Notes: generated by a model not told the origin, from the sequence alone. Positions 3,763 through 27,721 are shown, counted from the first letter of the stretch. The stretch is 28,594 nt of DNA from an uncultured Gammaproteobacteria bacterium (GCA_964502975.1 CAZCYK010000002.1:1-28594), one strand, 5' to 3'. Made by a program: numbers and translations.

Positions 3763-3850
3763 AAAAATCTTTGTTACGAATTTTTCCACTGGAAAATGAA
3801 TCTGGTCGCCCAGGTTCAAACACGTTCCAAAATTGTAACTTCAGATTTTT
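3763..3850. repeat. Long imperfect hairpin element (copy D), homologous to 27635-27721
   Basis: aaaaatct-TT-gttac...gtaac-TTC-agattttt; inner stem gaatctgg/ccaggttc. Confidence 0.8.
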
Positions 3851-3882
3851 TATAAATATAAATTAAAATTATAATTTTAAGA

Positions 3883-3888
3883 TAGAAT
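3883..3888 (+). promoter_or_regulatory. -10 box TAGAAT 5 nt upstream of the flippase ATG
   Basis: gaTAGAATaagttATG. Confidence 0.55.
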
Positions 3889-3893
3889 AAGTT

Positions 3894-5108
3894 ATGTTAA
3901 AAAAGCCGATAATAAATACGTTGGTTCAGGTGGGCGGAAAAATTGTGACAATAATTTTGAGCTTGGTGACCACGGCTGTATTGACTAGAAAGTTGGGGCC
4001 AGAAGTTTATGGAAATTATCTTTTGATTACTTCGATATGGCTATTGTTTGATTCGGCAGTTGATTTTGGAAGTAAAGTAATTGGAGTGAAAGAGGCATCG
4101 GCCAAGGATAGTGATCAAAGAAATGAAATTTATATTCAGGTTGCTTGGTTTAGAGCTTTGACTTCCCTATTTCTTTTTTTGGTGGGATTAGTGGTAATTT
4201 TATTTTGGTCGGGGTTTGATGGTTTAGAAATAGAAGCCTTGGTGGCTTTGTTGATGATTGGGTTTACTGCTATTGCTGGGAGTCTAGAAATTATTTTTCA
4301 AACAGAAATGAGAATGGATTTGAAGGTGGCAGGTGATATTGTTTTCCCCTTAATTTTTATAATAATTTTATGGGTTGCTAGGGATAATGTAAATCTAGTT
4401 TGGATTTTTGGGGTTTATTTGTTGGCAAGAATATTGAGTTTGATTTTGAGTCTTAATTTGGCAAAAAAGATTGTTAAAAAAATAAGCTTTGTAAAACTTG
4501 ATAAGACTTTTTTGAAAAAATTTGTGAGAGAAACTTGGCCGATGGGTGTGTATATGATTTTGTTTTCTGGATATGATCGGGCGATTGATTCTATTTTGAT
4601 AAAGCAGATGATTGGGGTAAGAGAATTGGCCTATTATGGATTGGCGTACAAAATATATGGAAATTTGATACAACCAGCTTATTTTTTGATCAACAGTGTC
4701 TTCCCTCTAATGTCCGGTAAAACAGAAAACAAAAGAAAATTGTTTTGGCAAACAACCGGACTAATGCTTTTGGGGGCCTTGATAGTGGCACCAACGATTT
4801 ATTTTTTGGCACCGTGGATTATTTCCCTTTTGGCAGGAAGTGCTTATCTAGCATCGGTTGAGGTGTTAAGAATTTTATTAGTAGCGATGGTGTTTGCTTA
4901 TCTTGGTCACTTGGTTGGTTTTACCCTGATAGCCAAAGGAAAACAAAAATTAATATTGTTTATTGGAATAATATCTTTGATTGTTAATATTGGCGGAAAT
5001 TTATTGTTTATTCCTAAATTTGGAATTGTTGGGGCGGCTTGGGTGACGGTGGCGACGGAAGCGGTGGCGGGGTTGTTGATGATAGGTTTTTTAAGAAAAC
5101 AGTCTTGA
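3894..5108 (+). CDS. Wzx/RfbX-like polysaccharide flippase (MOP superfamily)
   Basis: NTLVQVGGKIV..ILSLVTTAVLTRKLGPEVYGNY, AIDSILIKQM..ELAYYGLAYKI and NLLFIPKFGIVGAAW motifs; about 12 hydrophobic segments. Confidence 0.88.
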   Translation: MLKKPIINTLVQVGGKIVTIILSLVTTAVLTRKLGPEVYGNYLLITSIWLLFDSAVDFGSKVIGVKEASAKDSDQRNEIYIQVAWFRALTSLFLFLVGLVVILFWSGFDGLEIEALVALLMIGFTAIAGSLEIIFQTEMRMDLKVAGDIVFPLIFIIILWVARDNVNLVWIFGVYLLARILSLILSLNLAKKIVKKISFVKLDKTFLKKFVRETWPMGVYMILFSGYDRAIDSILIKQMIGVRELAYYGLAYKIYGNLIQPAYFLINSVFPLMSGKTENKRKLFWQTTGLMLLGALIVAPTIYFLAPWIISLLAGSAYLASVEVLRILLVAMVFAYLGHLVGFTLIAKGKQKLILFIGIISLIVNIGGNLLFIPKFGIVGAAWVTVATEAVAGLLMIGFLRKQS

Positions 5109-5111
5109 CCT

Positions 5112-5274
5112 TTGACTTGATAATGATTTTTTCGGGCTTGCAACCATCGTAACAACCACTGGCGAGGCGTCGCGTAGTATATACCGATAAATCGGTATCG
5201 TGTCTTTAGACAAAATTTCTTCGTTTTTAACTTGAAATTTTAACAAAAGAAACGAAAAATATTATCTGCGTCAA
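5112..5274. repeat. Long composite hairpin element (copy A) with TTGAC...GTCAA ends
   Basis: TTGAC-TT-GATAAT...ATTATC-TGC-GTCAA; internal core gggcttgcaaccatcgtaa shared with 9600-9686; embedded perfect palindrome ataccgat-aa-atcggtat at 5181-5198. Confidence 0.8.
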
Positions 5275-5296
5275 ATTTTATTTCCAAATAATTTTT

Positions 5297-5385
5297 TATA
5301 TTTTCTCGTAACCGATTTTTTAAGAGTCGGCCAAATGTGCGTCGCACGTTGGATACTCTTAAAAAATGATTACTTCAAAAATATA
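5297..5385. repeat. Long hairpin element (copy F)
   Basis: 13-bp perfect stem attttttaagagt/actcttaaaaaat; apical atgtgc-gtc-gcacgt; basal tatattttc-TC-gtaa...ttac-TTC-aaaaatata. Confidence 0.75.
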
Positions 5386-5705
5386 TACATTATTGATATA
5401 TTCCCCTGTTGGTAATCAGTACTTATTTTGGTTGTAGAAATGAGCTTGGTAAGTACATTTTTTTAGATTTCAAATTCTCATGTCTCAAGTGTTAGATTAT
5501 AAATAATAACGGATTTATAAACCTAATATGTACAACTATTTATTTTGATCAAAACATTGGAACTGGTTTTTTTAGAAGAAAATTAGTACAGAAACATATT
5601 ATTATGTTATGACGTTTTTTCACGTTCCAACGAAACACTGTGATAGGGTTTAAGGTGGGTTTAGTGATTATTTACCGCAAATAAACCGAAAATATACCGC
5701 AGGGA

Positions 5706-5758
5706 TTAGTCTTTAGTAAGTAGCTTTTAGTATTTAGTAATACAAATTAGTATAAAAT
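5706..5758 (+). repeat. 7-bp tandem repeat running into a TAAAAT -10 box (5753-5758), 6 nt before ATG 5765
   Basis: ttagtct ttagtaa gtagctt ttagtat ttagtaa ... ttagtaTAAAATtaagttATG. Confidence 0.7.
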
Positions 5759-5764
5759 TAAGTT

Positions 5765-8700
5765 ATGAATCAGGGGTTACCATCGGCATTAATAATTGGA
5801 ATTGACCATTTTGTGGCTAAGAATTTGGCCCAAGAATTGGTAAATAAAGATATAAGGGTGGTGGGAGTGGGGGGGTATGTACCAGGTTTAAGTGATTTAA
5901 CAAATTTTGAGTGGGCAGGTGAGCTTGGAGAAGTAGAGGGTCATTTTAGTTATGTGTTTGATTTTTGTGGGGATAAAAAAGATTGGGAAAAAGTTGAAGC
6001 GGAAAAGTACGTTTTGGTGAGTGTTAACGATAAATCTAGATCAATGCTTTTAAATAATGAGGTAGAAAGTTGGTCGGTGGATTGGCGAATAGTGGAGACT
6101 GAGGGGGTCTATGGAGTAGGAATGGGGGAAGATAGTTTTTTGTCCCAAACAATACGCTTAGCGGTCCAAAACAAAAACTTGGAATTGCCTAGCCCAAAAA
6201 AAACTATCAGGCTATTGGCTATAGCTGATTTGACTGAAGCTATTTTAAGGGCTACTTTTTTGTCAGGGACTGAGAGGGAAAAATTTTTGGTTTTGGGAAA
6301 GGAAATTAATTTTGAAGAGTTGGCCAAAATTTTGATGGATAAGGCTAAAATGACTAGATTTAAGGTGATTGAGATAGAAAAAGTAATTGATCAGGGAGAT
6401 AGTGTTGAGGCTCAAAAATGTGAAAAAAAATTAAGATGGGAGGCAAAAATAAAATTTGAAGAAGGAGTGGAGGAAGCATTGCAATATTTCTTTTCTAAAA
6501 TGGATGAAGAAAATAGATTAAAAAAGAAAATGAAGGCATCAAGTGCTGATAAATATGCAATCTTGGCAGGTAAACAAAAGGAGGAGAAAAAAAACAAAAT
6601 GTACGATGTGGCAATTGAGGAGGAAAATTTTGATCAAATCAATCCTTTTATTAAAAAAAATAATACACTTTATGAAGAAGTAGAAGATGAGTTGGTTACC
6701 CCGACTGAGGAAGAAAAAGAAGAGATTTATATACCAAAACTGATTGACTACAGTACTCATTTGACGAAAAAAGAAGAAAAAATAGAAGAATCGGAAGTTA
6801 AGACAGTTGAAGTAGAAAAAGAGAAAAAGGAGGCGGAAGACAATGATTATATTGAGGAAGAAAGTGAAGATTTTTTTGAAATTCCCAAAATTAATTCCGA
6901 AGCTAAACCAAAAGAAGAAATAAAAGATAATAAAAAAAATCACAAACGAAAATTTAACTTAACTAAAATAAGCAGAAAATGGTGGGTATTTTTATTAATA
7001 ATAATAATTCTTTTTTTGGTTGAACCGATAAGGTGGGTGGTTGGTACAACTCAGTCGGTAAACAATATAAAACAAATACCAGAATTGGTAAAAACTAAAA
7101 AATATCTTCAGGCGGAAAAAATGGCTGATAAAAGTATCGAAAAATTAAATAGAATTGATGAAAAAATTAATGATTGGAGTTTGAATAAATTTAAAACATT
7201 TAGAAATTATCAAACTGGAATAAAAGTGGGGGGAGATGTGTTATTGCTAGAAAAAAGGGCGATAGAACTGGCGCGAATTGCTGACTTAATGAGCGAGGCG
7301 ATGTTTTTTGAAAAAACAATAAACTGGAGTGATGAATTAGAACAATTAGAAAATCAATTGATACAGGCTGAGGGTAATATTGGCGTGTTGCAGGCCAGGT
7401 TGAATGGAGATTATAGTTGGATACCAGCAAAATGGAAGATGGATGCTCAAAAACAGATGAAAATGGTCGAAGAGGTCAGGGGTCAATTGGAGGTAATGAG
7501 AAGGTTTGTAAAGGTGGTGCCGGAATTTTTGGGAATAGAGGGGAAGACAAAACAATATATGGTGTTGTTTCAAAACGAATCAGAATTGAGGCCGACAGGT
7601 GGATTTATTGGTAGTTATGGAATATTAAAATTTGAAAACGGTAGGTTACTGGGTTTGGATGTAAAAGATGTCTATGAAGCCGATGGTCAACTTAAGGGAC
7701 ATGTTGAACCACCTTGGGAAATTAAGACTGTTTTAAATGAAGCTAAGTGGTTTATGAGAGATGCTAATTGGCAGCCTGATTTTACAAAAACCAGTGCTGA
7801 TATCCAGTGGTTTTTGGAAAAAGAAACTGGCCAAAAGGTAGATGGGGTGATCGGGGTTGATTTGGCAGTGGCAAAATCGTTTTTGAAAGTTGTTGGAGAA
7901 ATATATGTGCCAGATTTTAAAGAAACAATTAATGAGGCTAATTTGTATGAGCAAGCAGAGTTTTACGCAGAGACAAAATTTTTTCCGGGCTCAGTACAAA
8001 AGGCAAGTTTTTTGGGGGCGGTGGGTAAACAACTGTTTGAAGGAATTAAGAGTTTAAATATAGAAAAAAAAGCTGCCCTAATGCAGTCAATGGTTGGATT
8101 ACTTGAACAAAATGAGATTCAGATTGCCCTAAATCATAAAGAAACGGCCCAAATTATTACGAACTTGGGCTGGGATGGCAAAATTTATAATGGGAAATGT
8201 GGGGTAGGTGATTGTATAACTGATTATTTGTTTGTAGTTGAGGCTAATTTAGGTGTTAATAAGGCAAATTATTTTTTGAACAGAAACATTGAACAAACAG
8301 TAAACATTGGTCCAAACCAGATAGAAAGAATTTTAAAAATTAACTACGAAAATACGGCAAAAAATAATAATTGGCCAGGTGGGGATTATAAGAATTATTT
8401 GAGGGTATACTTGCCAAAAGACGTGAGTCTGTCGCAAATTAAAGTGACGGATGCTGGTGATGTGTCTAATTTTAAAATATATAATAATAATGAGCTGAGA
8501 ATTAAAGAAGTTGATGGGAAAAAAGAGGTGGGATTTTTGGTGATTGTGCCGACTTTGAAAAAGCGGGTGGTAGAGATTAGCTATAGTAGTAAAATTGACC
8601 TAGTCGGTAAGACGAAATTTAATTATATTAGCTATATTCAAAGACAAAGTGGGAGTGGGGAGACAGGGTTAGTAAGCTTGATAACTTATCCTAGTGATTG

Positions 8701-8806
8701 GCAGCCAGTACAAGTGCAACCGGTGGCGAGTATGGTGGGAGGAAAACTGTTGTTTAACCAAAAACTGAATAAGGATATAAAGATGGGAATAGAATTAGCG
8801 AAGTAG
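5765..8806 (+). CDS. Fusion: degenerate NAD-dependent epimerase (SDR)-like N-terminus, acidic linker, single TM, coiled region, DUF4012-like domain
   Basis: ALIIGIDHFVAKNLAQELVNKDIRVVGV (Rossmann-like) and VYGVGM; TM WWVFLLIIIILFLV; DUF4012-type YMVLFQNESELRPTGGFIGSY, RDANWQPDF, VDGVIGVD and EANLGVNKAN. Confidence 0.8.
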   Translation: MNQGLPSALIIGIDHFVAKNLAQELVNKDIRVVGVGGYVPGLSDLTNFEWAGELGEVEGHFSYVFDFCGDKKDWEKVEAEKYVLVSVNDKSRSMLLNNEVESWSVDWRIVETEGVYGVGMGEDSFLSQTIRLAVQNKNLELPSPKKTIRLLAIADLTEAILRATFLSGTEREKFLVLGKEINFEELAKILMDKAKMTRFKVIEIEKVIDQGDSVEAQKCEKKLRWEAKIKFEEGVEEALQYFFSKMDEENRLKKKMKASSADKYAILAGKQKEEKKNKMYDVAIEEENFDQINPFIKKNNTLYEEVEDELVTPTEEEKEEIYIPKLIDYSTHLTKKEEKIEESEVKTVEVEKEKKEAEDNDYIEEESEDFFEIPKINSEAKPKEEIKDNKKNHKRKFNLTKISRKWWVFLLIIIILFLVEPIRWVVGTTQSVNNIKQIPELVKTKKYLQAEKMADKSIEKLNRIDEKINDWSLNKFKTFRNYQTGIKVGGDVLLLEKRAIELARIADLMSEAMFFEKTINWSDELEQLENQLIQAEGNIGVLQARLNGDYSWIPAKWKMDAQKQMKMVEEVRGQLEVMRRFVKVVPEFLGIEGKTKQYMVLFQNESELRPTGGFIGSYGILKFENGRLLGLDVKDVYEADGQLKGHVEPPWEIKTVLNEAKWFMRDANWQPDFTKTSADIQWFLEKETGQKVDGVIGVDLAVAKSFLKVVGEIYVPDFKETINEANLYEQAEFYAETKFFPGSVQKASFLGAVGKQLFEGIKSLNIEKKAALMQSMVGLLEQNEIQIALNHKETAQIITNLGWDGKIYNGKCGVGDCITDYLFVVEANLGVNKANYFLNRNIEQTVNIGPNQIERILKINYENTAKNNNWPGGDYKNYLRVYLPKDVSLSQIKVTDAGDVSNFKIYNNNELRIKEVDGKKEVGFLVIVPTLKKRVVEISYSSKIDLVGKTKFNYISYIQRQSGSGETGLVSLITYPSDWQPVQVQPVASMVGGKLLFNQKLNKDIKMGIELAK

Positions 8807-8812
8807 TTGAGG

Positions 8813-8926
8813 AGATAAGTAGATGAGTAGATAAATAGATAAGTAGATAAATAGATAAGTAGATGAGTAGATAAATAGATAAGTAGATGAGTAGATAAAT
8901 AGATAAGTAGTAAGTAGTAAGTAGTA
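8813..8926 (+). repeat. Tandem array of twelve 8-bp units (agataagt/agatgagt/agataaat, 24-bp higher-order period) followed by agtaagt 7-mers
   Basis: Units counted directly from 8813 to 8908; there are no unique spacers. Confidence 0.92.
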
Positions 8927-8946
8927 ATAAAGATAGATTTTTTTTA

Positions 8947-9061
8947 TTGACTCGACAATATTTTTAGCCATATTACCTTGGCTTGATAGTATTTTTACCG
9001 TCCTCGCACCATCGTAAAATCCACTCAGAGGCTTGCGGGCGGAAAAATACTATCTTCGCCA
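8947..9061. repeat. Long hairpin element (copy B) preceded by an unpaired TTGACTCGACAATATTT arm
   Basis: ggc-TT-gatagtattttt...aaaaatactatc-TTC-gcc (12-bp perfect stem); loop accatcgtaaaatccactcagaggc identical over 25 nt to 9631-9655. Confidence 0.82.
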
Positions 9062-9068
9062 GTTAAAC

Positions 9069-9077
9069 TGTTAAAAT
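9069..9077 (+). promoter_or_regulatory. Extended -10 (TGtTAAAAT) 5 nt upstream of ATG 9083
   Basis: cTGtTAAAATtgcatATG. Confidence 0.6.
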
Positions 9078-9082
9078 TGCAT

Positions 9083-9478
9083 ATGAAAAATGTGGTGGAG
9101 GATTTTGTTTGTGACCCGCCTTCGTTAAAAACTTCGGCGAGGCAAGGAGTGTTGCGGAATTTTAAGAAAGTTAGAGAAAATTTTAAGTGTGAGAATTGTG
9201 GGTATTTGGTTAAAGGTGACGGGTATACAGATCATTGCCCAAAATGTTTGTGGGGGAAGCATGTCGATGAAGAGATTCCAGGGGATAGAGCCAGTATGTG
9301 TAAAGGTTTAATGAAACCGATTAGAAGTGAATATCAAAATACAGATTTTAAAATTTTTTATAAATGTGAAAAATGTAATCATAAGTTTTGGGTTCATGCC
9401 GCCGTCGCTAAAGCTAAGGCGAGCCAAGGTGTAAGTGAAGGTGATAATAGAGATTTATTGGTAGAATTGGGGATTTAG
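9083..9478 (+). CDS. RNHCP-domain Cys-rich (putative zinc-binding) protein with two in-frame palindrome insertions
   Basis: FKCENCG...YTDHCPKCLWGKHVD..PGDRASMCKGLMKP...YKCEKC. ATG 9083 is preferred over TTG 9077, which overlaps the -10 box. Confidence 0.88.
   Translation: MKNVVEDFVCDPPSLKTSARQGVLRNFKKVRENFKCENCGYLVKGDGYTDHCPKCLWGKHVDEEIPGDRASMCKGLMKPIRSEYQNTDFKIFYKCEKCNHKFWVHAAVAKAKASQGVSEGDNRDLLVELGI
9116..9147. repeat. Short palindromic element (family B), in frame, encodes PPSLKTSARQG
   Basis: ccgccttcgttaaaaacttcggcgaggcaagg; 25/32 identical to 9399-9429. Confidence 0.75.
9399..9429. repeat. Short palindromic element (family B), in frame, encodes AAVAKAKASQG
   Basis: ccgccgtcgctaaagctaaggcgagccaagg. 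Confidence 0.75.
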
Positions 9479-9590
9479 TTGATTAGATAAGTAGATAAGA
9501 AGTTGAGAAGTAAAAAATGTTACGGTATAAAAACGGTTAATATGCGGAGAATGGATTAGTTTATTAGTTAATTAGTAAATAGTAAATAAA
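9476..9590 (+). repeat. Two degenerate 7-8-bp tandem tracts after the RNHCP stop
   Basis: tagttgat tagataag tagataag aagttgag ... ttagtttattagttaattagtaaatagtaaat. Confidence 0.6.
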
Positions 9591-9599
9591 TTTTTTTGT

Positions 9600-9686
9600 T
9601 TGACTCGACAATATTTATTTCGGGCTTGCAACCATCGTAAAATCCACTCAGAGGCATCGCCCTGCAATAAACATTGTCTGCGTCAA
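9600..9686. repeat. Long hairpin element (copy C), 87 nt, TTGAC...GTCAA ends
   Basis: TTGAC-TC-GACAAT-a-TTTATT-tc-GGGC...GCCC-tgc-AATAAA-c-ATTGTC-TGC-GTCAA. Confidence 0.85.
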
Positions 9687-9721
9687 ACCGTAGTTATAAA
9701 ACAAATTAAGGTTGGTTTGGA

Positions 9722-9730
9722 TGGTATAAT
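9722..9730 (+). promoter_or_regulatory. Extended -10 (TGgTATAAT) 6 nt upstream of the ftsH ATG
   Basis: aTGgTATAATgggagcATG. Confidence 0.75.
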
Positions 9731-9736
9731 GGGAGC

Positions 9737-11761: not shown

Positions 11762-11805
11762 AGAAGTAGTTGAGTAGATGAATAGTATTTAGCTGAAAGA
11801 GGAGG
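11759..11805 (+). promoter_or_regulatory. 8-bp tandem tract from the ftsH stop, then an SD-like GAGGAGG (11799-11805) 7 nt before ATG 11813
   Basis: tagagaag tagttgag tagatgaa tagtattt ... GAGGAGGggaaaaaATG. Confidence 0.55.
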
Positions 11806-19374: not shown

Positions 19375-21468
19375 TTAATTTGGTGTGAGAGTTTGGTTGT
19401 TTGGGTTGGAGGGTTGGCCCTTAAAATCATCTTCATCGGTATACTCTGGAATAAAAACTGGTTCATTTGGGTCAAGATTTTGATAACAACCATAGTAGGT
19501 TTTTTGGGAATTGGTTTCTGGAGCAACTGCACGACCAACGTTTTCAAATTTTCTGCCATCAAAGAAGGGAGGGCTGGTTTGTACTTCACAAAGTTCACTA
19601 TAAATGTTGCCATCGATAATATTGTAGTTTTCGTCAACCAAAAATTGGTTTTCGGTAGAATCTACGGCGCTAGTCGAATTAGTAGTTAATCCTTTGCTTA
19701 GGGCAATTTTGTTGTCATGTAAAGAAACACAGCGAAAAACTTGTTGGCCAGCATTTTTGAAATCAATAGTGAATGGGGTATAACCCGTGGCATGGTTTTG
19801 GAGTAAAATTGAAATGGTCTTTTTTTCTCTCTCAAATTGTTGTTTATCTCTGGAATCGAAAAGATTGTTACGACAGGGAATGATTAGTGACCTCCAGGCT
19901 TCGACATGCCAGCCGTTGAATATTTCGGCAATACCATATAAATAGTTGTCGACCGACATAGTGACGGCATAGGTACAGCTTCCGTTCCATTTATCTTTTA
20001 GCTCGTTCCAAACTTCTTTTGGATTATTAATATTGGAGGTGAGATTAATTCCTTTATTTTGCATGTCTTCAGCCCAAAGTTTTTGTTCACTTTCTGATTT
20101 ATTGTCGAATTCGGCTTCGGTTCCAGGCCAATTATCTTGACAATTGTAGTTTGGATCTTCGGGTTGTTGCCAATCTACACTGCTTTTTGCTTGGGCGATG
20201 TTAATAATTTCGTATTTAATTTCACTGTCGTATGAATTGGCTAGTTTAATACAATTTTGATATTTTTCTTTACTGTTTGCTGGAGTATCTATATTGTTTC
20301 CGTCACCATTGTGTTCCCAGTGATCAAGAAGGTAAATTTTTACTTGATAGTATTGGGTGCTAAAATTGGGAATTTTATAGATAGACTTATCTTCGCCAAA
20401 ATAACTTTTAAGAATTTTTTGGTGACTGTAGCCAAGCATGGCCATGCCGAAAGCACCGTATTGGCTATAACCTTCAGTAAATGTTTCCTTTTCGAGTCTT
20501 TTGGCATCACAGTAAGCGTCATTGAGTTTATATTCTTTTGCCAAATCAGTAGAGTCTTTGGGAAGGCTGGATTTTTGCCATTTTTTGGAGATAATCCAGT
20601 TTTTCCAAGATTCGCGTAGATATTCGCGATTTTTGTCTTTATCTTTTGGATTGCCTTCGTTGTTAGTATCATTGGAAACGCAGGGAATATAGCCATGACC
20701 TGATTTGGGTATTACCCCCAATGTTCCATATTTGTCTTGTTTGTCATTATCTGCCCCTACTGCAAGAGCTTCTGATGATGTTTTATTATCGGTGGGAGCG
20801 TCTTGACCTTGCCCTTTTTTTGCTATGGAATAACGTAAGATATTGTTAAGCTGGTTACTAACTCCGGTCGCGGCATCTTTGGCTCCCGCAAAATAGCCTT
20901 TAGGAACATCTTGGTAATTTGTATAAAGATTTTGATAACAAATATCAGGATTGGAGAGTTCCTTTTCACAGTTAAGTGGACTTATGTTGTTAAGCTCTTC
21001 GTCGTCATATTCAATTGCTACACGATTGTTACGTTTGTAGAGAATTTTTTCATCACGTTTTTTATGAAAACAGATTATGTCATTAATACTAATATCTTGG
21101 GGGCAGTTGGTTTTGTCGTCGATGGGAAGAGCTTCGTTTTTTTTGTTTTTTCCAAACAAATCAGTAGTAAGAATTTCATAAAACCAGACTCCTCTTTGGT
21201 ATCTTTTTAGGGCTTCAGGGGTAATCCTGTTGGCTACATCTTGGTTTTCAGCGGTATAATCGGTGTGTGAGTCTTTTTGGTCTAAAACAGAAGGGTTGGC
21301 ATTGTTGGTTATATGAGAAATGTTTTCTCCAAAAATACGTTCAAAAACTCTGGTTATCCAAACCCAAATAGTTTCTCCGCCTTCTTGATTATCAGTTGCA
21401 AAAATAGTAGTGGGTAGACTAATGAAAAAAGAGAGAAAAATAAGAAAAACAAGTAACTTTTTTTTCAT
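19375..21468 (-). CDS. Secreted Cys-containing protein (697 aa) with SpoIID/LytB-like motifs in permuted order
   Basis: ATG 21468 overlaps the upstream pilin stop (TAATG) and gives a clean signal peptide MKKKLLVFLIFLSFFISLPTTIFA; EGYSQYGAFGMAMLGYSHQKILKSYF and MSVDNYLYGIAEIFNGWHVEAWRS. Confidence 0.7.
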   Translation of the reverse strand: MKKKLLVFLIFLSFFISLPTTIFATDNQEGGETIWVWITRVFERIFGENISHITNNANPSVLDQKDSHTDYTAENQDVANRITPEALKRYQRGVWFYEILTTDLFGKNKKNEALPIDDKTNCPQDISINDIICFHKKRDEKILYKRNNRVAIEYDDEELNNISPLNCEKELSNPDICYQNLYTNYQDVPKGYFAGAKDAATGVSNQLNNILRYSIAKKGQGQDAPTDNKTSSEALAVGADNDKQDKYGTLGVIPKSGHGYIPCVSNDTNNEGNPKDKDKNREYLRESWKNWIISKKWQKSSLPKDSTDLAKEYKLNDAYCDAKRLEKETFTEGYSQYGAFGMAMLGYSHQKILKSYFGEDKSIYKIPNFSTQYYQVKIYLLDHWEHNGDGNNIDTPANSKEKYQNCIKLANSYDSEIKYEIINIAQAKSSVDWQQPEDPNYNCQDNWPGTEAEFDNKSESEQKLWAEDMQNKGINLTSNINNPKEVWNELKDKWNGSCTYAVTMSVDNYLYGIAEIFNGWHVEAWRSLIIPCRNNLFDSRDKQQFEREKKTISILLQNHATGYTPFTIDFKNAGQQVFRCVSLHDNKIALSKGLTTNSTSAVDSTENQFLVDENYNIIDGNIYSELCEVQTSPPFFDGRKFENVGRAVAPETNSQKTYYGCYQNLDPNEPVFIPEYTDEDDFKGQPSNPNNQTLTPN

Positions 21469-21842
21469 TATTGAGCGTCGGGGATAGTAAAATCGGTAAC
21501 ATTGACCCCAGTGAATTCTTTGATAAACAATAAAATTAACCAAGAGACAAGAACACCGATTATACCGATAAAAGACATTGTAATAGTGTGGCTGGCAGCA
21601 GCAGCTTTTTTGGGATCACCACCTGAAGTGATATATTTAAAACCGCCAACCAGAAACATGGCAAAAAAAGTAAGACCGGCAAGGGGAACAATAACTTGGA
21701 GAATATTTTGGAAAAGACATTCGAAACCTTGGATGGTGGCGACGTCTTTATTTTCACCAGCAACACATTTTCCATCTAGCATTTCTTTCCACTGTTCTGC
21801 GAAAACAGGGGAGGGAGAGAAAAAATTAGTTAAGTGGTTCAT
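21468..21842 (-). CDS. VirB2/TrbC-like pilin-family membrane protein P8
   Basis: Two hydrophobic helices around GGFKYITSGGDPKKAAAASHTIT. Confidence 0.8.
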   Translation of the reverse strand: MNHLTNFFSPSPVFAEQWKEMLDGKCVAGENKDVATIQGFECLFQNILQVIVPLAGLTFFAMFLVGGFKYITSGGDPKKAAAASHTITMSFIGIIGVLVSWLILLFIKEFTGVNVTDFTIPDAQ

Positions 21843-21848
21843 AAATTA

Positions 21849-21854
21849 ATTATA
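21849..21854 (-). promoter_or_regulatory. -10 box TATAAT 6 nt upstream of the P8 ATG
   Basis: Minus strand: cctgTATAATtaatttATG. Confidence 0.65.
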
Positions 21855-21889
21855 CAGGAGAAATTGCTCTTAAAAAATAGAACTTGAAA

Positions 21890-22588
21890 CTATTCTTGAT
21901 AAAAAGGCTGGATAATTAGATTCGTAAAGTCAAATCCAAAAACAGTGCTAATAAGTCGCATGAGAGCCCAAGCGATAAAAACTATAGTTAGACCAATTAG
22001 GCCATGGGTAATAGAGGTCCGTGCGGCTGCTAGTTTTTTTTCGTCACCACTGGAGGTAATCCACTTGATACCACCAAAAAGAAGAATAAAAAAGAAAGTG
22101 ATAGAAGCAATGATATAAATAATATTTACCGCGGTGGAAATCATGCTTCCCGAAGTGATTGTTCCGAGCCCCGAAAAATTCCCTGGGGCATTAAGATCAA
22201 TTATGTCGTCGGAGGTTGAGTTGTTAGGAGAAGAACTACCACCAGTACTATTTGGGTCAGATTCCGGGGTACATTCTCTTTTTCCGCTTTCACACCCATT
22301 AGGGCAATTTGTTTTTTGCCAAGTTCCATCATCTCTACAAGTACGGAGTTCGCTTGCGGAGGAGTAACAAAATGAAAAACCGACATCATAATTGGATTTT
22401 CCATCGGTAGTACACATGTTTTTACAGGTCCATTTGCTTCCGTTTCGGGAACAAGATTCAGCACTTCCATAATTTGTGTCACTACATTGGCATACTTCGA
22501 CCCCTTTAACCGGAGAGATAAAAATTAGGGTGAAAATAAAAATTGTTAAAAAAACTGTTAAAAAATTTTTTATTATTATTAATTTCAT
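21890..22588 (-). CDS. Pilin-family protein P7 with a signal peptide and a 10-Cys N-terminal domain
   Basis: Classical signal peptide; ten Cys in ~80 aa; Ser-rich linker; core GGIKWITSSGDEKKLAAARTSITHG. Confidence 0.8.
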   Translation of the reverse strand: MKLIIIKNFLTVFLTIFIFTLIFISPVKGVEVCQCSDTNYGSAESCSRNGSKWTCKNMCTTDGKSNYDVGFSFCYSSASELRTCRDDGTWQKTNCPNGCESGKRECTPESDPNSTGGSSSPNNSTSDDIIDLNAPGNFSGLGTITSGSMISTAVNIIYIIASITFFFILLFGGIKWITSSGDEKKLAAARTSITHGLIGLTIVFIAWALMRLISTVFGFDFTNLIIQPFYQE

Positions 22589-22697
22589 TTTAGTAAGTCA
22601 AGAGTATTAAAGACTGGTTTATAACTGAATTATACTAGAATTAATAAAAATAAAAATTGTTAAATTATTGATAGTGAATAAATTAATACAAATTAAC

Positions 22698-22729
22698 AAA
22701 ATCCCTCTTCAAAACAAAAGAGGGGTTTT
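22698..22729 (-). terminator. Intrinsic terminator-like hairpin downstream of P6, possibly bidirectional
   Basis: aaaatCCCTCTTcaaaacaaAAGAGGGgtttt; T-tracts on both strands. Confidence 0.65.
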
Positions 22730-22754
22730 AGATTTCTAGTTTTTAAATTATTTA

Positions 22755-23159
22755 TTAGATTTTTGGAGGTACTAAAGCAGGAACTGCAAGCTGAAAAAAA
22801 TCAACTTGGAAAACGGCGCCAAGAAGTCTCATTATCGCCCAAGCGGCAAAGACAATGGCTAAACCAACCATGCCACTAGTTATAGAAGCACGAGCAGCAG
22901 CGACTTTTTTCTCGTCTCCACCAGAGGTTATCCACTTGATACCACCTCCAACTAGGACAAAAAAGAAAATTAGTGAAGTAATAATAAAAACTATGGACAT
23001 TAACCAGCCCAATATTTGACCGAATGTCAGACCGGCGATGCCTGAAAATGCACTACCTTCAGGTAACTCCGTTTTTAGTTCGGTAGCTAGATCTGTTGCC
23101 GCATAAGCTGGAATAGCAAATGAAGCAAGGTATGATTTATTTTTTATTTTTCCAATCAT
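22755..23159 (-). CDS. VirB2/TrbC-like pilin-family protein P6
   Basis: GGGIKWITSGGDEKKVAAARASITSG between two hydrophobic helices; leader ends AIPAYA. Confidence 0.82.
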   Translation of the reverse strand: MIGKIKNKSYLASFAIPAYAATDLATELKTELPEGSAFSGIAGLTFGQILGWLMSIVFIITSLIFFFVLVGGGIKWITSGGDEKKVAAARASITSGMVGLAIVFAAWAIMRLLGAVFQVDFFQLAVPALVPPKI

Positions 23160-23254
23160 TTTTTGTTTATAATTAATAATTAACTAATATTAACAGTAAT
23201 CTTTATGGTTTGTAAAGTGGCTTGTAAGTTTTTTAATATTATTTTTTAATTAAA

Positions 23255-23689
23255 TTAGACAGGGTTGGTGGGGTTGGGGTTTAAAAAACTGGGTATATTG
23301 AGTTGAAGGATATTGATACCAAAAAGTAATTCAATAACTTTTAGAATTACCCAGGAACTAAAAATAATAATTAAACCGACAAGCCCGTGGGTTATTTGGC
23401 CGCGGGCAGTAGTAAGTTTTTTTTCGTCACCAGATGAAACGATCCATCGGTAACCTCCAGTAAGAAGAATTAAAAAGAAAACGATAGTAGTAATAGTGAG
23501 AGCAAGGCTAATAGTTCCGGATATAAAATTTTTTGGGGTAATTGTTGTAAGATTTTTAAAATCACCACCCACACCAAGCTGGAGTTTGTCAGTAGTAGTG
23601 TTGGCCTCTCCCTCATCGGCATAAATAACTGGAGGGAAAGGAATGATCGCATATATTATTTTATTTTTAATTGAATTGAAATTAATCAT
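23255..23689 (-). CDS. VirB2/TrbC-like pilin-family protein P5
   Basis: GGYRWIVSSGDEKKLTTARGQITHG. ATG 23689 (8 nt after the P4 stop) is preferred over the overlapping TTG 23716. Confidence 0.8.
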   Translation of the reverse strand: MINFNSIKNKIIYAIIPFPPVIYADEGEANTTTDKLQLGVGGDFKNLTTITPKNFISGTISLALTITTIVFFLILLTGGYRWIVSSGDEKKLTTARGQITHGLVGLIIIFSSWVILKVIELLFGINILQLNIPSFLNPNPTNPV

Positions 23690-23697
23690 AGTGAATA

Positions 23698-24069
23698 TTA
23701 TAATAAGTTTGGCCAAGCGATTTCTAAAGTTTCTAGGCCATTAATTCCAAAAACAATACCGATGAATTTTAATATTACAAAAATAGAAAAGACAACGACA
23801 ACACCGACTACTGAATAAGTGAGTGATTTTTGGGCTTCTTCCCATTTTTTGGGATCGCCTTGAGAAGAAATCATATGGTAAGCAGACATAACAACGTGCC
23901 AAATAAAATAAATGACTCCGACCATAATAAAAAGAGTCACAATGGTTTGGATGACATTATTGGTGTAAACGATGGGTGAATTGGCGATTTTATTTTTTGC
24001 TGAATCAGTATCGCATCCTGGTTCGAGAATGGGGTTGCAGACAGCGTAAATTGATTTTATTAGTTGCAT
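23698..24069 (-). CDS. VirB2/TrbC-like pilin-family protein P4
   Basis: SAYHMISSQGDPKKWEEAQKSLT; N-terminal Cys pair. Confidence 0.8.
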   Translation of the reverse strand: MQLIKSIYAVCNPILEPGCDTDSAKNKIANSPIVYTNNVIQTIVTLFIMVGVIYFIWHVVMSAYHMISSQGDPKKWEEAQKSLTYSVVGVVVVFSIFVILKFIGIVFGINGLETLEIAWPNLL

Positions 24070-24070
24070 A

Positions 24071-24433
24071 TTATTGTTCTAATTGTGGTGATAAATTTTC
24101 AAAAATTTTTTCTAAATTGAAGATATTTTCAATACCAAAAAGATTGGCGAGAAGGGCAGTAATGCCGAAAGCGATAACAACTATGGTAATACCCAAAATT
24201 CCATCGGTAAGTCGTTTGCGGGCGGATTCAATTTTCTTTTCATCACCTTGGGCGGATAAAAATGAATAACCAGCAAAAATAACTTGGAGAACAAAAAAGA
24301 TAAAAGCAACAAGGGTTAGAACACCTATGACTGTGGAAATAATTTTGTCAAGTTCAGTAACTCCATAGTCATCCCCTGTCACATTAATTCCGACTCTACT
24401 TTCTAATTTTATCGCTAATAGATTAGATTTCAT
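24071..24433 (-). CDS. VirB2/TrbC-like pilin-family protein P3
   Basis: AGYSFLSAQGDEKKIESARKRLTDG. Confidence 0.8.
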   Translation of the reverse strand: MKSNLLAIKLESRVGINVTGDDYGVTELDKIISTVIGVLTLVAFIFFVLQVIFAGYSFLSAQGDEKKIESARKRLTDGILGITIVVIAFGITALLANLFGIENIFNLEKIFENLSPQLEQ

Positions 24434-24436
24434 AAT

Positions 24437-24790
24437 TTATTCGTAAACAGGTGTGATAACAGGATCAAGAATGTTGTTCATACCAACTAGTCTGCCAATA
24501 ACTGCGGTAAGAACAAAGGCACTGGAAACGATAACTAAACCAATAATACTTTGGTAAATTTTGGCCCAAGCGGCTTCAGTTTTTTTTGGGTCACCGCTGG
24601 CAGATATATAAGCAAAACCAGCTAGAAGAATTTGAATTACAAAGAAGACGCCAGCGACAACCCCAACGAGACTAAATAACCGATTTAATAAAATAAATAT
24701 TCCACCTCCTTGATCACCTTCTATATAGGCCTCGTCAATAAGCGGAGTTAAGACTTCTGGGGGGGTAATTTCTCCAAATATTGATAACAT
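24437..24790 (-). CDS. VirB2/TrbC-like pilin-family protein P2
   Basis: AGFAYISASGDPKKTEAAWAKIYQSIIG. Confidence 0.8.
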   Translation of the reverse strand: MLSIFGEITPPEVLTPLIDEAYIEGDQGGGIFILLNRLFSLVGVVAGVFFVIQILLAGFAYISASGDPKKTEAAWAKIYQSIIGLVIVSSAFVLTAVIGRLVGMNNILDPVITPVYE

Positions 24791-24812
24791 ATGTTGATTA
24801 TAACTGAGTATC

Positions 24813-25154
24813 TTATGGCAATAAAGGGTTTAATATTCGCAAACCAGTGACGGTTTGGATTATTTGAATAATAAAATAGGCACAAAAAACAACTAAAAAA
24901 CCAATAACTGCACTAGTAATGGTTTTTTTTGATTGTTCGGCTTTTTTACTGTCACCTGAACCAGCACTAGCAATCATATTGAAACCACCAAAAAGAACAA
25001 GACCAAGAAGGATAATACCAGCGACAACAATTGCGTTGGTAAGAAGTGAACTAATAAGAGGGGAAATGCTGGTATATTTGTCAATGGTATTATTGCTATT
25101 ACCTCCAAGTGGTAATTTACCAATGTCAACAGCAATTAACAAACGTTTGTTCAT
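24813..25154 (-). CDS. VirB2/TrbC-like pilin-family protein P1
   Basis: GGFNMIASAGSGDSKKAEQSKKTITSAVIG. Confidence 0.8.
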   Translation of the reverse strand: MNKRLLIAVDIGKLPLGGNSNNTIDKYTSISPLISSLLTNAIVVAGIILLGLVLFGGFNMIASAGSGDSKKAEQSKKTITSAVIGFLVVFCAYFIIQIIQTVTGLRILNPLLP

Positions 25155-25161
25155 TGAAGAA

Positions 25162-25167
25162 ATTATA
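25162..25167 (-). promoter_or_regulatory. -10 box TATAAT 7 nt upstream of the P1 ATG
   Basis: Minus strand: agaTATAATttcttcaATG. Confidence 0.65.
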
Positions 25168-25244
25168 TCTAAACTTGATTAAAAAAGCGAATAAGAAAAA
25201 TAGGGAGTTGATTTGTTAAAAATAGTGTTATAATACGCCACTTT

Positions 25245-25294
25245 ATTTAGTTGATTAGATAACTAGTTATTTAGTTTATTAGTATAATAGTTGT
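25245..25294 (+). repeat. 8-bp tandem tract whose last units contain the TATAAT -10 (25283-25288), 6 nt before ATG 25295
   Basis: ttagttga ttagataa ctagttat ttagttta ttagTATA ATagttgt ATG. Confidence 0.7.
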
Positions 25295-26173
25295 ATGAAA
25301 AAAACTGCCCCATTAATAATAGTATTTGGTATTTGGTATTTAGTATTTAGTATAAGACCAATTGAGGCGATAACAAAAACTACTACACCTATCGTGGAGA
25401 TCACTCCAGTAGCGACAGTAACAGCAACGGTGATACCCGAACCGACTATAGTAGTCAATAATATTACGGAACCTCAAGGGAAAGAAATTGAAATTAAAGA
25501 AGTAAAATGGAATGGATTTAATACTTTTAAGGTAGCTATAAATTGGGCAGTAAAACACGGAGTGTCGACGAATACTTTAGTGTTATTGTTCTTGTTGCCT
25601 TTGGTGGCAACACTAGTTTCGTTTTTGCATTATGTGGTGGGACTGTCAGGATATGGAATATTTATGCCAACAATGATTGCAATTGCTTTTTTGGCAACTG
25701 GAATTTTTGGAGGATTGATATTATTTAGTTTGATTTTAGTAATATCTTTGGTTAGCAATATGGTGTTGCGCAAGTTTAAGCTTCATTTTTGGCCAGCTAG
25801 ATCAATTAGTTTGATGTTTATTTCGATTGGTACTTTTGTATTGATGATGTTGTCTTCTTTTGTTAATTCGATTGATATTAGTAAAATTTCGATTTTTCCA
25901 ATATTGTTTATGATTTTGTTGACTGAGGAATTTAGTCGAACTCAATTGGCGAAAAGTAAAAAAGAAGCGAAGAAATTAACAATTGGGACGGTGGTATTGG
26001 CAATTACTGGAGCAGGGGTAATGAATTTTTCGCTAGTTCAAGAAACAGTGTTGAAATATCCTGATGCAATGATAGTAATAGTACTAGTAATTAATTTATT
26101 GGTGGGGAATTATACTGGGATTAGATGGTCAGAGATTGGGAGATTTAAGAAAGGAATAAGAAATAAAAACTAG
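25295..26173 (+). CDS. 7TM protein of the ATP-grasp-associated (7TM_transglut-like) family, with a signal peptide and Thr/Pro/Val-rich stalk but no transglutaminase domain
   Basis: LVLLFLLPLVATLVSFLHYVVGLSGYGIFMPTMIAIAFLATGIFGG motif; directly upstream of the alpha-L-glutamate-ligase-like gene. Confidence 0.75.
   Translation: MKKTAPLIIVFGIWYLVFSIRPIEAITKTTTPIVEITPVATVTATVIPEPTIVVNNITEPQGKEIEIKEVKWNGFNTFKVAINWAVKHGVSTNTLVLLFLLPLVATLVSFLHYVVGLSGYGIFMPTMIAIAFLATGIFGGLILFSLILVISLVSNMVLRKFKLHFWPARSISLMFISIGTFVLMMLSSFVNSIDISKISIFPILFMILLTEEFSRTQLAKSKKEAKKLTIGTVVLAITGAGVMNFSLVQETVLKYPDAMIVIVLVINLLVGNYTGIRWSEIGRFKKGIRNKN
25320..25354 (+). repeat. 7-bp tandem repeat inside the CDS, encoding the signal-peptide h-region VFGIWYLVFSI
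   Basis: tagtatt tggtatt tggtatt tagtatt tagtata, the same unit as intergenic 2317-2351. Confidence 0.8.
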
Positions 26174-26205
26174 ATTTAAGGTTTAAGAAATTAGATTTAA
26201 GAATA
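26171..26205 (+). repeat. 7-bp tandem tract starting at the 7TM stop codon
   Basis: tagattt aaggttt aagaaat tagattt aagaata. Confidence 0.65.
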
Positions 26206-26208
26206 ATT

Positions 26209-27582
26209 ATGTTAAATTTAAAAAAATATCGAAGGTTTTTGACCAAAAATGAGCGGAATAAGGTTTATTTGAGGAAAAACACAGCCAAGGGTAGAACAAT
26301 TGCTGATAGTAAATATAGAACAAAGAAATTGTTGGCCAAAAAGGGTGTGGGGGTACCGGCTTTGATAGCTAGGTTTAAAAATGAGACAGATTTGATAAAT
26401 TTTAGATGGGAAAATTTGGAAGGTAATTTTGTGATTAAACCAGAATCGGGTTATGGTGGTGAGGGAATTATTATTGTTCGGAAAAGAGGAAAATGGGCGG
26501 GAGAATGGCAAAAAATGAATGGAGAAAAAATTACTACCCAGGATTTACAACTTCATTGTCAGGAAATATTGGCTGGTAAATATAGTTTACATTCGATGAA
26601 GGATACAGTATTGGTAGAAGAGAGAATTAAAATTCATCCTTTGTTTTTGGCGCTTACACGATCGGGAACACCAGATATCCGGGTGATTGTTTATAATAAA
26701 GTACCAGTGATGGCAATGTTTAGAATTCCAACTGAAAAATCGGGAGGTAAGGCAAATTTACACCAGGGAGCAATTGGGTTGGGAGTGGATTTGGCTACCG
26801 GAATTACCACTTTTGGAGTGGAAAAAGGAGTGCCGATTTACCGAATATATGATTTTAATAAAAAGAAAAAACGAAAAGTGAATGGAATAAAGATTCCTTT
26901 TTGGAGAGAGATATTGGAAACTGCGGTAAAGTGTCAATTGGCAATACCAAGTCTCGGGTTTATGGGGGTGGATGTAGTACTAGACAAGGAAAAAGGACCA
27001 GAAGTGTTGGAGGTAAATGCTCGGCCTGGTCTGTCAATCCAACTTTGCAATATGGCTGGGCTAAAAGGTCGGATAGAAAAAGTGGATGAAATTGAAGTAA
27101 GAAATGTGGACCATGCGATTACTTTGGCAAAGTATCTTTTTGGAGAAAAGTTTTTTGTAAAAATTGAAGAAAAAGAGAAAAATAGAACAATTGATTCGGT
27201 GGAGACGATAAGGGTGAAAATCCCTAAAGGTTTTGATCTAAAAGATGAGAATATAAAAATTATTAAAAAAGGGAAACACCGGATGGTAGAAGTGGAGGCA
27301 AAAATTGATACTGGAGCCTTGAGAAGTTCGATAGATGAAAGTTTGGCTAAACAATTGGGATTGTTGGTTGAGGATAAAATATTGTATTATCGTCACTATC
27401 GATCGGCTTTGGCTAAGTCGCATGAAAGACCGGTAATTGGGATAAATTTTTGGTTAAAAGGGAAGAAAATTTCAACAACGGTTAATGTGGCTAGTAGAGA
27501 AGGGTTGACGGCTAGATTTTTGATTGGAAGGAGAGATTTAGATGGGTTTTTAATAAAGGCAAAAGGAAATGAGAAGAAATAA
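26209..27582 (+). CDS. Alpha-L-glutamate-ligase-related ATP-grasp (ATPgrasp_ST type) fused to a C-terminal retropepsin-like RimK-associated peptidase domain
   Basis: NERN...ADSKYRTKKLL, FVIKPESGYGGEGI, GTPDIRVIV..VPVMAMFRIPTEKSGGKANLHQGA, LEVNARPGL; C-terminal AKIDTGA...ERPV...LIGRRDL. Confidence 0.85.
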   Translation: MLNLKKYRRFLTKNERNKVYLRKNTAKGRTIADSKYRTKKLLAKKGVGVPALIARFKNETDLINFRWENLEGNFVIKPESGYGGEGIIIVRKRGKWAGEWQKMNGEKITTQDLQLHCQEILAGKYSLHSMKDTVLVEERIKIHPLFLALTRSGTPDIRVIVYNKVPVMAMFRIPTEKSGGKANLHQGAIGLGVDLATGITTFGVEKGVPIYRIYDFNKKKKRKVNGIKIPFWREILETAVKCQLAIPSLGFMGVDVVLDKEKGPEVLEVNARPGLSIQLCNMAGLKGRIEKVDEIEVRNVDHAITLAKYLFGEKFFVKIEEKEKNRTIDSVETIRVKIPKGFDLKDENIKIIKKGKHRMVEVEAKIDTGALRSSIDESLAKQLGLLVEDKILYYRHYRSALAKSHERPVIGINFWLKGKKISTTVNVASREGLTARFLIGRRDLDGFLIKAKGNEKK

Positions 27583-27634
27583 AATAGAATGTTTAAATTT
27601 TTTACTTGATAATGATTTTTTATTATTTTCTTTG

Positions 27635-27721
27635 AAAAATTCTCGTTACGAATTTTTTCACTGGAAAATGAGTCTGCGTAGCAGGCTCAAAAACGTTCAA
27701 AAACTGTAACTTCGAATTTTT
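27635..27721. repeat. Long imperfect hairpin element (copy E), homolog of 3763-3850
   Basis: aaaaattc-TC-gttac...gtaac-TTC-gaattttt; inner stem gagtctgc/gcaggctc; preceded at 27604-27621 by acttgataatgatttttt, identical to the 5' arm of copy A. Confidence 0.8.

Follow-up and report, generated by a model that had tools for sequence, protein, structure and literature searches.

REP systems carry a single-copy RAYT gene encoding a Y1 HUH enzyme, usually flanked by REPs. The REPINs of these systems are hairpin-forming doublets which show compensatory changes and leave singlet remnants (PMC3116915). HUH transposases read the strand and register of a hairpin through its irregular features, and transposition of IS200/IS605 elements uses the lagging-strand template (PMC6006769). 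Here we describe repeats with features of both systems from a DNA stretch of 28,594 nucleotides (CAZCYK010000002.1:1-28594, GCA_964502975.1; 'the window' in what follows) deposited under the name uncultured Gammaproteobacteria bacterium. A sequence-only reading of the window had pointed to six long intergenic hairpins, A to F, with different stems and a shared 2x3 internal loop, and had proposed a new family of structured RNA or of mobile single-stranded DNA (ssDNA). The six hairpins represent three sequence families built on one basal plan, type 1 (A, B and C), type 2 (D and E) and type 3 (F), and related contigs of the Microgenomates, a group of ultra-small bacteria, yielded about 50 more copies. 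The elements belong to the interspersed palindromic repeats and match no catalogued RNA or mobile-element family. Their unusual features are a strict single polarity in genomes with a GC skew of single sign, a conserved 2x3 pyrimidine loop and a host from the candidate phyla radiation (CPR). Judged from the comparisons below, there is about an even chance that they are lineage-specific non-autonomous palindromic repeats, REPIN/IS200-like, which would be handled as folded ssDNA on the lagging-strand template.

The likeness to REPINs lies in intergenic, multi-copy, hairpin-forming inverted repeats of ca. 90-110 nt with compensatory changes between the arms and several subfamilies per genome (PMC3116915), as well as in clusters of adjacent copies and in decayed single-arm remnants (8947-8965 and 27600-27621 in the window, and in eight related loci). 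Unlike REPINs, the elements lack a conserved GTAG/CGTC end tag, with CGTC present only where stem 1 is GAC/GTC, and their single arms are not REP palindromes of 20-40 bp. In type 1 the conservation of the apex equals or exceeds that of the arms, but these copies had been collected via an apex search. Further differences are the strictly single polarity relative to the G-rich strand, the CPR host and the absence of a RAYT gene from the genome fragments examined.

Similar to the ends of IS200/IS605 elements and to PATEs, the elements are imperfect hairpins, and the known ends are recognised as ssDNA via irregular bases. There is also an orientation bias that places one strand on the lagging-strand template (44/44 elements here; PMC6006769), and target-site duplications are lacking; one duplicated unit reaches ca. 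10 nt past the 3′ foot. Unlike IS200/IS605, the elements consist of one long hairpin instead of separate left-end and right-end hairpins, have no conserved target tetranucleotide or guide sequence, and were not accompanied by TnpA or TnpB among the genes scanned. With the Correia/NEMIS, RUP, ERIC and BOX group of miniature inverted-repeat transposable elements (MITEs) they share a length of ca. 100 bp, long terminal inverted repeats, subfamilies, chimeras and an intergenic position near genes, often with co-transcription, whereas classical MITEs differ in target-site duplication and have neither the conserved arm-length asymmetry nor the uniform DNA-strand orientation. Integron attC sites are likewise imperfect hairpins of one strand, with a basal stem, an unpaired spacer, a second stem, extrahelical bases and a terminal structure that varies; they too are found 3′ of genes, in an orientation tied to replication. 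However, the R-box AAC/GTT triplets of attC are absent from the elements, stem 1 varies freely (GAC, GGC, AGC, AAT, GAT, TAC, TCT, TTC), the neighbours are housekeeping genes (rnpA, yidC, ftsH and similar) and not cassettes, and no integrase was found among the scanned genes.

Anatomy and conservation of the hairpins

All six hairpins were present at the positions and with the arms and loops first proposed (6/6), with fold z-scores of -3.3 to -7.0 relative to shuffled sequences. The exact signature, defined as a 4-bp stem, T[TC] and G plus 4 bp, followed within a span of 40-220 by C, T[GT]C and the complementary 4-bp stem, has six matches on the + strand of the window and none on the - strand, while 200 dinucleotide shuffles gave a mean of 0.02 matches. 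In 834 kb of unrelated loci there were three matches, counting both strands, as compared to ca. 30 in 206 kb of related CPR loci. The + strand matches are A, B, C, D, E and a stretch at 19897-20074 (GGCT-TC-GACATGC ... GCATGTC-TTC-AGCC), which lies within the coding region of a 722-aa - strand gene. The latter has a fold z-score of only -1.5, an apex unlike types 1-3 and no match to R1, a covariance model built from 24 type-1 copies; it is probably a chance match and not an element, despite the expectation of 0.02 per window. A bare 2x3 loop with 5+5 bp flanks was not enriched over other loop geometries in this A+T-rich window, so the distinctive signal is the loop sequence together with its G-C closing pair. 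The proposal of a shared signature thus holds for that sequence and not for the geometry as such, and the six hairpins have a basal plan in common but are not independent, since they form three sequence families.

The copies, imperfect inverted repeats with a length of about 85-95 nt, form long hairpins on the G-rich strand. The common plan consists of an A/T-rich foot, an asymmetric internal loop 5-8 bp above the foot, further conserved irregularities and an apex specific for the subfamily. The basal loop, closed by G-C, has two nucleotides (T-Y) on the 5′ side and three (T-K-C) on the 3′ side. In type 1, the 5′ half is composed of a T-run, stem 1 (5-8 bp, e.g. TTTGAC), T-Y, stem 2 and a second asymmetric loop, T-C / T-G-C. 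Stem 2 reads G-A-Y-A-A-T, frequently with an A.C mismatch or a G bulge, followed by five to six T-A pairs, and stem 3 is GGGC/GCCC or, in the B subtype, CCGTC..CGC/GCG..GGCGG. The type-1 apex of ca. 37 nt contains ACCATCGTAA[A/T]ATCCACTCAG[A/C]GGC, after which the 3′ arms place T-K-C opposite T-Y; the core ACCATCGTAA..CCACT..GGC attributed to A, B and C was confirmed in the sequence. In type 2, the foot is an A-run and the basal loop is unchanged; GTTAC-G-AATTTT, a CCACTGGAAAATGA segment and, at the apex, a hairpin of 8 bp complete the plan. The type-3 arms are CTCGTAACCGATTTTTT ... AAAAAATGATTACTTC.

Element C (9597-9689, +; R1 score 103.7 bits) is the canonical type-1 copy and lies upstream of ftsH. 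Its 5′ half comprises the T-run, stem 1 TTTGAC, TC, stem 2 GACAAT-A-TTTATT, TC, stem 3 GGGC and the apex TTGCAACCATCGTAAAATCCACTCAGAGGCATC, and its 3′ half GCCC, TGC, AATAAA-C-ATTGTC, TGC and GTCAAA; orthologues upstream of ftsH in L129, L122, L136, L142, L135 and L121 have compensatorily changed stems. Element B (8975-9065, +; 83.6 bits) carries the B-subtype stem 3 in place of GGGC/GCCC with an unchanged apical loop. Its core is near-identical at another locus in L013, a metagenome-assembled genome (MAG) of a Candidatus Shapirobacteria bacterium, and the orthologous site in L147 holds a chimeric B/C copy. Immediately upstream of B is an orphan type-1 5′ arm (8947-8965, +; TTGACTCGACAATATTTTT), the remnant of a decayed copy. 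A second orphan 5′ arm, TTTTACTTGATAATGATTTTTT, lies just upstream of E at 27600-27621 (+), the place where the A-type 5′ arm had been noticed to recur; the orthologous spacer in L126/L145 contains a complete type-1 element. In element A (5109-5277, +) the basal part, TTGAC-TT-GATAAT / ATTATC-TGC-GTCAA, is intact and the 3′ half is broken by an insertion of ca. 80 nt (about 5173-5252) with small hairpins of its own, and R1 matches the element as two halves (5109-5193 and 5224-5277). The hairpins of the insertion are ATACCGATAAATCGGTAT and TTTCTTCGTTTTTAAC...GTTAAAA..GAAACGAAAAA; a more distant relative has a related module, CCCGATAAATCGGG..TCGTGTCTTTAGACA, in one of its spacers (L149, 4340-4636), and the insertion may be an additional type of mobile module.

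The type-2 elements D and E are both complete. D (3763-3850, +; z -4.8) lies between the Wzy_C and Polysacc_synt genes and reads AAAATCT-TT-GTTAC-G-AATTTT ... AAAATT-GTAAC-TTC-AGATTTT with the apex GAATCTGG-TCGC-CCAGGTTC, which includes a T.G pair, and E (27635-27721, +) reads AAATTC-TC-GTTAC ... GTAAC-TTC-GAATTT. The type-3 element F (5297-5385, +) has z-scores of -5.4 (+) and -7.0 (-) and scores 26.7 bits with R1. It had been described as near-consensus, which applies to a basal loop close to the common form; the window copy has a 3x4 loop owing to a C.A at the closing pair, its only departure from the exact signature, while the type-3 orthologue in the same spacer of L132 has a clean 2x3 loop. 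Another type-3 copy is located at L135 1521-1607.

Many further copies were found in scans of metagenomes and genome contigs and with the covariance model. Twenty-five loci from metagenomes of activated sludge and digesters matched the type-1 core, and all except L130 (24/25) are genuine hairpins. For the genome collection, the pattern of 15 specified bases was too loose, with 120 matches that are mostly due to chance; the real ones are L013, L035 and L057. Further type-1, type-2 and type-3 elements in these loci were found with the signature and R1. A search of Rfam 15 at E<=10, with the whole window and with two sub-regions under lax filters, gave no above-chance match on the hairpins, in agreement with the earlier statement that the family was not recognised. 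Scans of IMG/VR with the type-1 and type-2 cores gave zero matches, blastn against phage and plasmid collections gave no match to the elements, and literature searches for CPR repeats, MITEs or REPs of such kind retrieved no description. TIGR-Tas arrays were considered and rejected, the elements being dispersed and not tandem.

Alignment of 24 type-1 sequences showed that 91.8% of the cells are paired and that 14 of the 27 pairs have compensatory double changes. The covariation value was reached in 0/500 shuffles, and pairing falls to about 50% when the partners are slid by 1-3 columns. For type 2 (11 sequences) 95.4% of the cells are paired and 12/28 pairs are compensatory; in the apical hairpin, all 11 copies have the same T.G at one position, whereas the adjacent pairs covary. 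The basal loop of type 1 is T-C or T-T opposite T-G-C or T-T-C in 19/24 copies, with G-G-C and T-G-T as minor variants, and the copies in L121 and L125a have lost the loop and are perfect palindromes. Covariation and retained irregularities indicate that the hairpin is maintained together with its irregularities and is not accidental. The arm-length asymmetry, two against three nucleotides and twice in type 1, is not producible by mutational bias. The proposals that stems differ while pairing is kept, and that apical parts are exchangeable, agree with these alignments and, for the apex, with the orthologous spacers and the L147 chimera.

Conserved pairing and conserved non-Watson-Crick positions would also be expected of independent small structured RNA genes transcribed from one strand, whose product would bind a protein via the internal loop, purine-rich on the - strand or pyrimidine-rich on the + strand. 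With RNA parameters, folding of types 1 and 3 indeed favours the - strand by 5-6 kcal/mol, and since no Rfam family matches, the gene would be a new one. However, type 2 folds equally well on both strands, and the strand favoured by wobbles and energy varies with type. The assignment of T:G wobbles to the + strand is correct only for the invariant T.G of type 2; types 1 and 3 carry A.C there, and the + strand count for type 1 (13 G.T against 17 A.C) leaves the strand undecided. Moreover, there is no conserved promoter or terminator flanking either strand, the flanks of different copies are unrelated, the copies in L121 and L125a are palindromes with no loop at all, and orphan arms and chimeras are typical of repeats and not of RNA genes. 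RNA genes are therefore very unlikely, also in view of the copies that are antisense to the operon around them or lie behind canonical terminators.

Several known motifs were compared with parts of the elements and rejected. A kink-turn consists of a 3-nt bulge followed by tandem sheared G.A / A.G pairs. The - strand loop, G[A/C]A opposite [A/G]A closed by Watson-Crick G-C, is 3x2 where a kink-turn would be 5x2. The small open reading frame in type 2 (ATG to stop, 13-19 codons) differs in frame and length between D and E. The CCACT motif matches a DnaA box at 7-8 of 9 positions, but lies in loops and is not conserved in type 3, and TTGAC as a sigma-70 -35 box is excluded by the variability of stem 1 and the lack of a following -10 hexamer.

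Orientation of the elements on the chromosome

The GC skew of the window is very strong and of a single sign, +0.3 to +0.5, decreasing to ca. 0 to +0.15 over the - strand genes. In all 27 related loci it is the positive-skew strand that carries the TY/TKC form of the loop and, counted by element, this form lies on the G-rich strand in 44/44 tabulated elements of all three types, with none oriented against the skew. About 74% of the coding DNA is on the G-rich strand, so most elements are also co-oriented with the neighbouring genes. Four elements are flanked by opposite-strand genes and still follow the skew. One is located in the rplJ-rplL spacer of L138, a contig with skew +0.24 on which all called genes are on the - strand, two (one type 1 and one type 2) are in a block of five - strand genes in L139, and the fourth is a type-1 copy of L013 between opposite-strand genes, at the locus orthologous to that of the L139 type-1 copy. 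Since polarity is independent of the direction of neighbouring genes, the relevant strand is a DNA strand and the orientation is not set by transcription. All copies in a genome probably share the same absolute orientation, set by a property of the DNA strand.

The G-rich strand serves as the lagging-strand template. By the usual rule the leading strand is the G-rich one (PMC7143001), by which the TY/TKC form would be the parental lagging-strand-template sequence that is transiently single-stranded during replication. Several Microgenomates, among them UBA1400, have a GC skew of single sign over the whole chromosome (genomes named are CP011210, MFAS01000001 and Ch65), for which unidirectional replication was proposed (PMC7143001). 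A flip of element polarity at the dnaA origin was sought via a switch in GC skew, but in L123 (5000-13947) the skew keeps its sign at dnaA/dnaN, in agreement with the published skew; the single-sign skew also persists over opposite-strand genes.

The absolute co-orientation with the G-rich strand and the single-sign skew of the clade also fit replication or chromosome-maintenance signals, in which hairpins of the lagging-strand template would act in priming, as single-strand initiation sites or as polar signals of unidirectional replication. The selection on hairpin integrity agrees with such a role, as do the conserved apical loops, which are C/A-rich against the genomic G excess and in which CCACT recurs in types 1 and 2. 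An essential signal would not, however, be gained, lost, swapped between types or reduced to half-arms among close relatives, the more distant relatives L148 and L149 have few or no elements despite the same synteny, and the spacing along the chromosome is irregular. We know of no precedent for chromosomal priming hairpins at such density, and consider such signals very unlikely. A little less so, though still distinctly unlikely, is that the elements are uniformly oriented ssDNA hairpins tied to the proposed unidirectional replication, for example as sites of loading, priming or processing by a replisome-associated enzyme that would read the loop.

Turnover in orthologous spacers and possible mode of spread

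Turnover was examined in 11 related genomes over the region from rnpA to clpB, where the coding DNA is 65-85% identical. The orthologous spacers are mosaics that hold an element of any of the three types, a terminator or nothing. The yidC-jag spacer holds a type-1 element in four genomes, a terminator-like module in L132 and L035 and a 7-nt periodic repeat in the window. Between the Wzy and flippase genes there is a type-2 element in the window (D) and L122, a type-1 element in L124, orphan arms in L135, or plain terminators. Upstream of ftsH, type 1 is found in seven genomes and type 2 in three, while the element is decayed in L147 and the site is empty in L148. Of L125 and L131, which are 87% identical, one has a type-1 element where the other has a type-2 element followed by the orphan type-1 3′ arm, a replacement of one type by the other.

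Orphan 5′ arms before, and orphan 3′ arms after, complete elements were seen in at least 11 cases, and among the relatives such arms occur in L035, L122, L131, L132, L135, L136, L137 and L147. Their junctions lie in T or A runs, which is consistent with slippage deletions between adjacent copies. The chimera in L147 consists of B-type arms and a C-type arm and apex, joined at the shared apex. Recent duplication is evident from L124, which has two copies identical at 91/92 positions in different spacers, both absent from its relative L136, with identity running from the T-run to about 10 nt past the 3′ foot. L035 and L133, with ca. 85% identical coding DNA, share a 100% identical 97-nt copy in different spacers.

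Of the two possibilities raised at first, a structured RNA and an ssDNA mobile element, the latter fits best with the polarity, the turnover and the duplicates. To the observed family membership, conservation of structure, polarity, turnover and recent duplication, the reading as ssDNA palindromic repeats would add an ssDNA intermediate, a role for the loop and a trans-acting enzyme as its proposed parts. The folded G-rich strand exposed in replication would be the form that is recognised and duplicated, by analogy with the way HUH tyrosine transposases handle IS200/IS605 ends and REP/REPINs, and the asymmetric loop would mark the correct strand and register. Copies made or fixed via such a folded G-rich-strand intermediate would have a single orientation. 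Orphan arms would then result from the decay of copies via deletions at their T and A runs, and chimeras from recombination at the conserved apex.

Several observations weigh against this reading. No HUH/Y1 transposase, RAYT or other transposase was found among the open reading frames of the window, 20 further open reading frames from related loci and the genes of L147-L149, all of which are genome fragments of 1.5-28 kb; the suggestion that the hairpins are recognition sites for one protein is thus unsupported. There is no target-site duplication, GTAG/CGTC tag or conserved flank motif, also not in the recent duplicates. Comparison of orthologous loci did yield an empty site upstream of ftsH (L148), but no clean pair of filled and empty sites with exact boundaries, since in the yidC-jag and pst-DUF4012 cases whole spacers are replaced. 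Wobbles and folding energies fail to single out the + strand for types 1 and 3, and the compensatory pairing in orthologous copies could equally mean a host function of the hairpin. Finally, elements occur in 25/62 spacers between leading-strand genes and in 2/24 between lagging-strand genes, a bias that a purely selfish DNA element would not have; these counts are themselves biased, as an element served to fetch most loci and one region is represented by many orthologues. If real, the enrichment suggests that retention depends on the transcriptional context.

Compensatory pairing and leading-strand enrichment are both accommodated by an alternative in which the hairpins are inter-cistronic mRNA stem-loops, that is 3′-end stabilisers, RNase III-type sites or U-tract-independent terminators, kept or spread for a benefit in expression. 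Most copies begin 2-27 nt past a stop codon, end 30-50 nt before the next start and are co-oriented with the genes. Their shape, a long imperfect duplex with an asymmetric internal loop, is also reminiscent of RNase III substrates. However, polarity tracks the DNA strand, and the elements in L138, L139 and L013 are antisense to their host operon, so that a transcript would contain the complement of the conserved loop and apex. In L124, some copies are located between a canonical GC-rich, T-tailed terminator and the promoter that follows it, and presence is sporadic among close relatives. None of the six hairpins (0/6) has the G+C-rich stem and T run of a terminator. We regard an mRNA function as the basis of the family as unlikely, and sequence-specific 3′-end processing, a purpose of the kind suggested at first for the hairpins, is unlikely in view of the antisense copies and of those behind terminators. 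An mRNA role is compatible with the ssDNA reading as a secondary one: when co-transcribed, the elements probably serve as generic mRNA stem-loops as well, a possible reason for their retention mostly between leading-strand genes. Intrinsic (rho-independent) terminators as such were rejected, as a terminator scan called 0/6 hairpins, the feet are A/T-rich and A-rich sequence follows type 1; canonical terminators do occur elsewhere within element-bearing spacers.

Chromosomal surroundings and implications

The window is a bacterial chromosome segment with 35% G+C. On the + strand it encodes the 3′ end of rpmH, rnpA, yidC, jag/KhpB, a Wzy_C ligase-like and a Polysacc_synt flippase-like protein, a DUF4012 protein, an RNHCP protein, ftsH and a ClpB-like ATPase. 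The - strand carries a gene block with an array of T4SS_pilin-domain genes (21890-25154), where six of the eight tandem small genes scanned score above the Pfam threshold for PF18895 and a seventh just under it. The array is followed by two large proteins of 548 and 722 aa without Pfam domains, and the same arrangement is present in L147-L149. The closest public genome match that carries an element is the Candidatus Shapirobacteria MAG (L013), and all related contigs are CPR/Microgenomates-like in gene content and synteny. Two public MAG contigs labelled 'uncultured Gammaproteobacteria', L035 (CAYRYK010000008.1) and L057 (CAYOPC010000075.1), nevertheless carry the same elements and share 83-99% identity with the CPR-like contigs studied, so that mis-binning or mislabelling is probable.

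The spacers contain other repeated modules. Tandem arrays with a 7-8 nt period are found at 135-175, 923-960, 1747-1780, 2318-2350, 5706-5760, 8801-8924, 9484-9499, 9555-9588, 11765-11786, 25243-25292 and 25320-25353, with units such as AGTATTT, AAGTAGAT, TTAGCAT and AAGTTATA. They adjoin stop codons or lie just upstream of -10-like boxes of + strand genes, many are stop-rich in all frames, and orthologous spacers have arrays of the same period with other units (TCAGCTG, TAGATCG, TTTCTAA). Phased protein-binding sites and bent-DNA arrays are possibilities. A double-hairpin module, CCCCTCTGTCCC-GATGAATC-GGGACATCTCCCC-TTAAAAAA-GGGAGAAGTC, is present at 188-294 and 2376-2432 and in spacers of L122, L124, L127, L131, L132, L135 and L136. 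Unlike the main family it occurs in both orientations (L131, L127). It has no Rfam match in the window and may be a terminator variant or a separate repeat family. A box TTGCGGWATAAAAACGGTTAATTTGCGG before ftsH (9515-9550) is kept in every related genome although the surrounding spacer is not, and the boxes ATGACGTTTTTTCACGTTCC and TTACCGCAAATAAACCGAAAATATACCGCA before the DUF4012 gene (5609-5628 and 5671-5700) are kept in every related genome as well. These boxes are likely operator sites for a regulator.

Mobile DNA is usually said to be almost lacking in CPR bacteria, and no mobile elements are reported in the one study of a complete genome from the relevant lineage (PMC7143001). Counter to the mobile-DNA-poor picture, intergenic space in the genomes described here is largely built from a few interchangeable hairpin modules with fast turnover. 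In practical terms, the repeats are places where metagenome assemblies, and chromosomes of the clade in recombination, are likely to break. If a cognate enzyme is found, hairpin-guided ssDNA transposition of the IS200/IS605 and RAYT kind would be extended to the CPR, with a 2x3 pyrimidine loop closed by G-C as a new recognition geometry. The strict polarity provides an independent sequence marker of strand identity in genomes where the GC skew never changes sign, by which the proposed unidirectional replication becomes testable. Should the elements after all be sites of a replisome-associated enzyme, a single replication mechanism would underlie both the elements and the GC skew of single sign.

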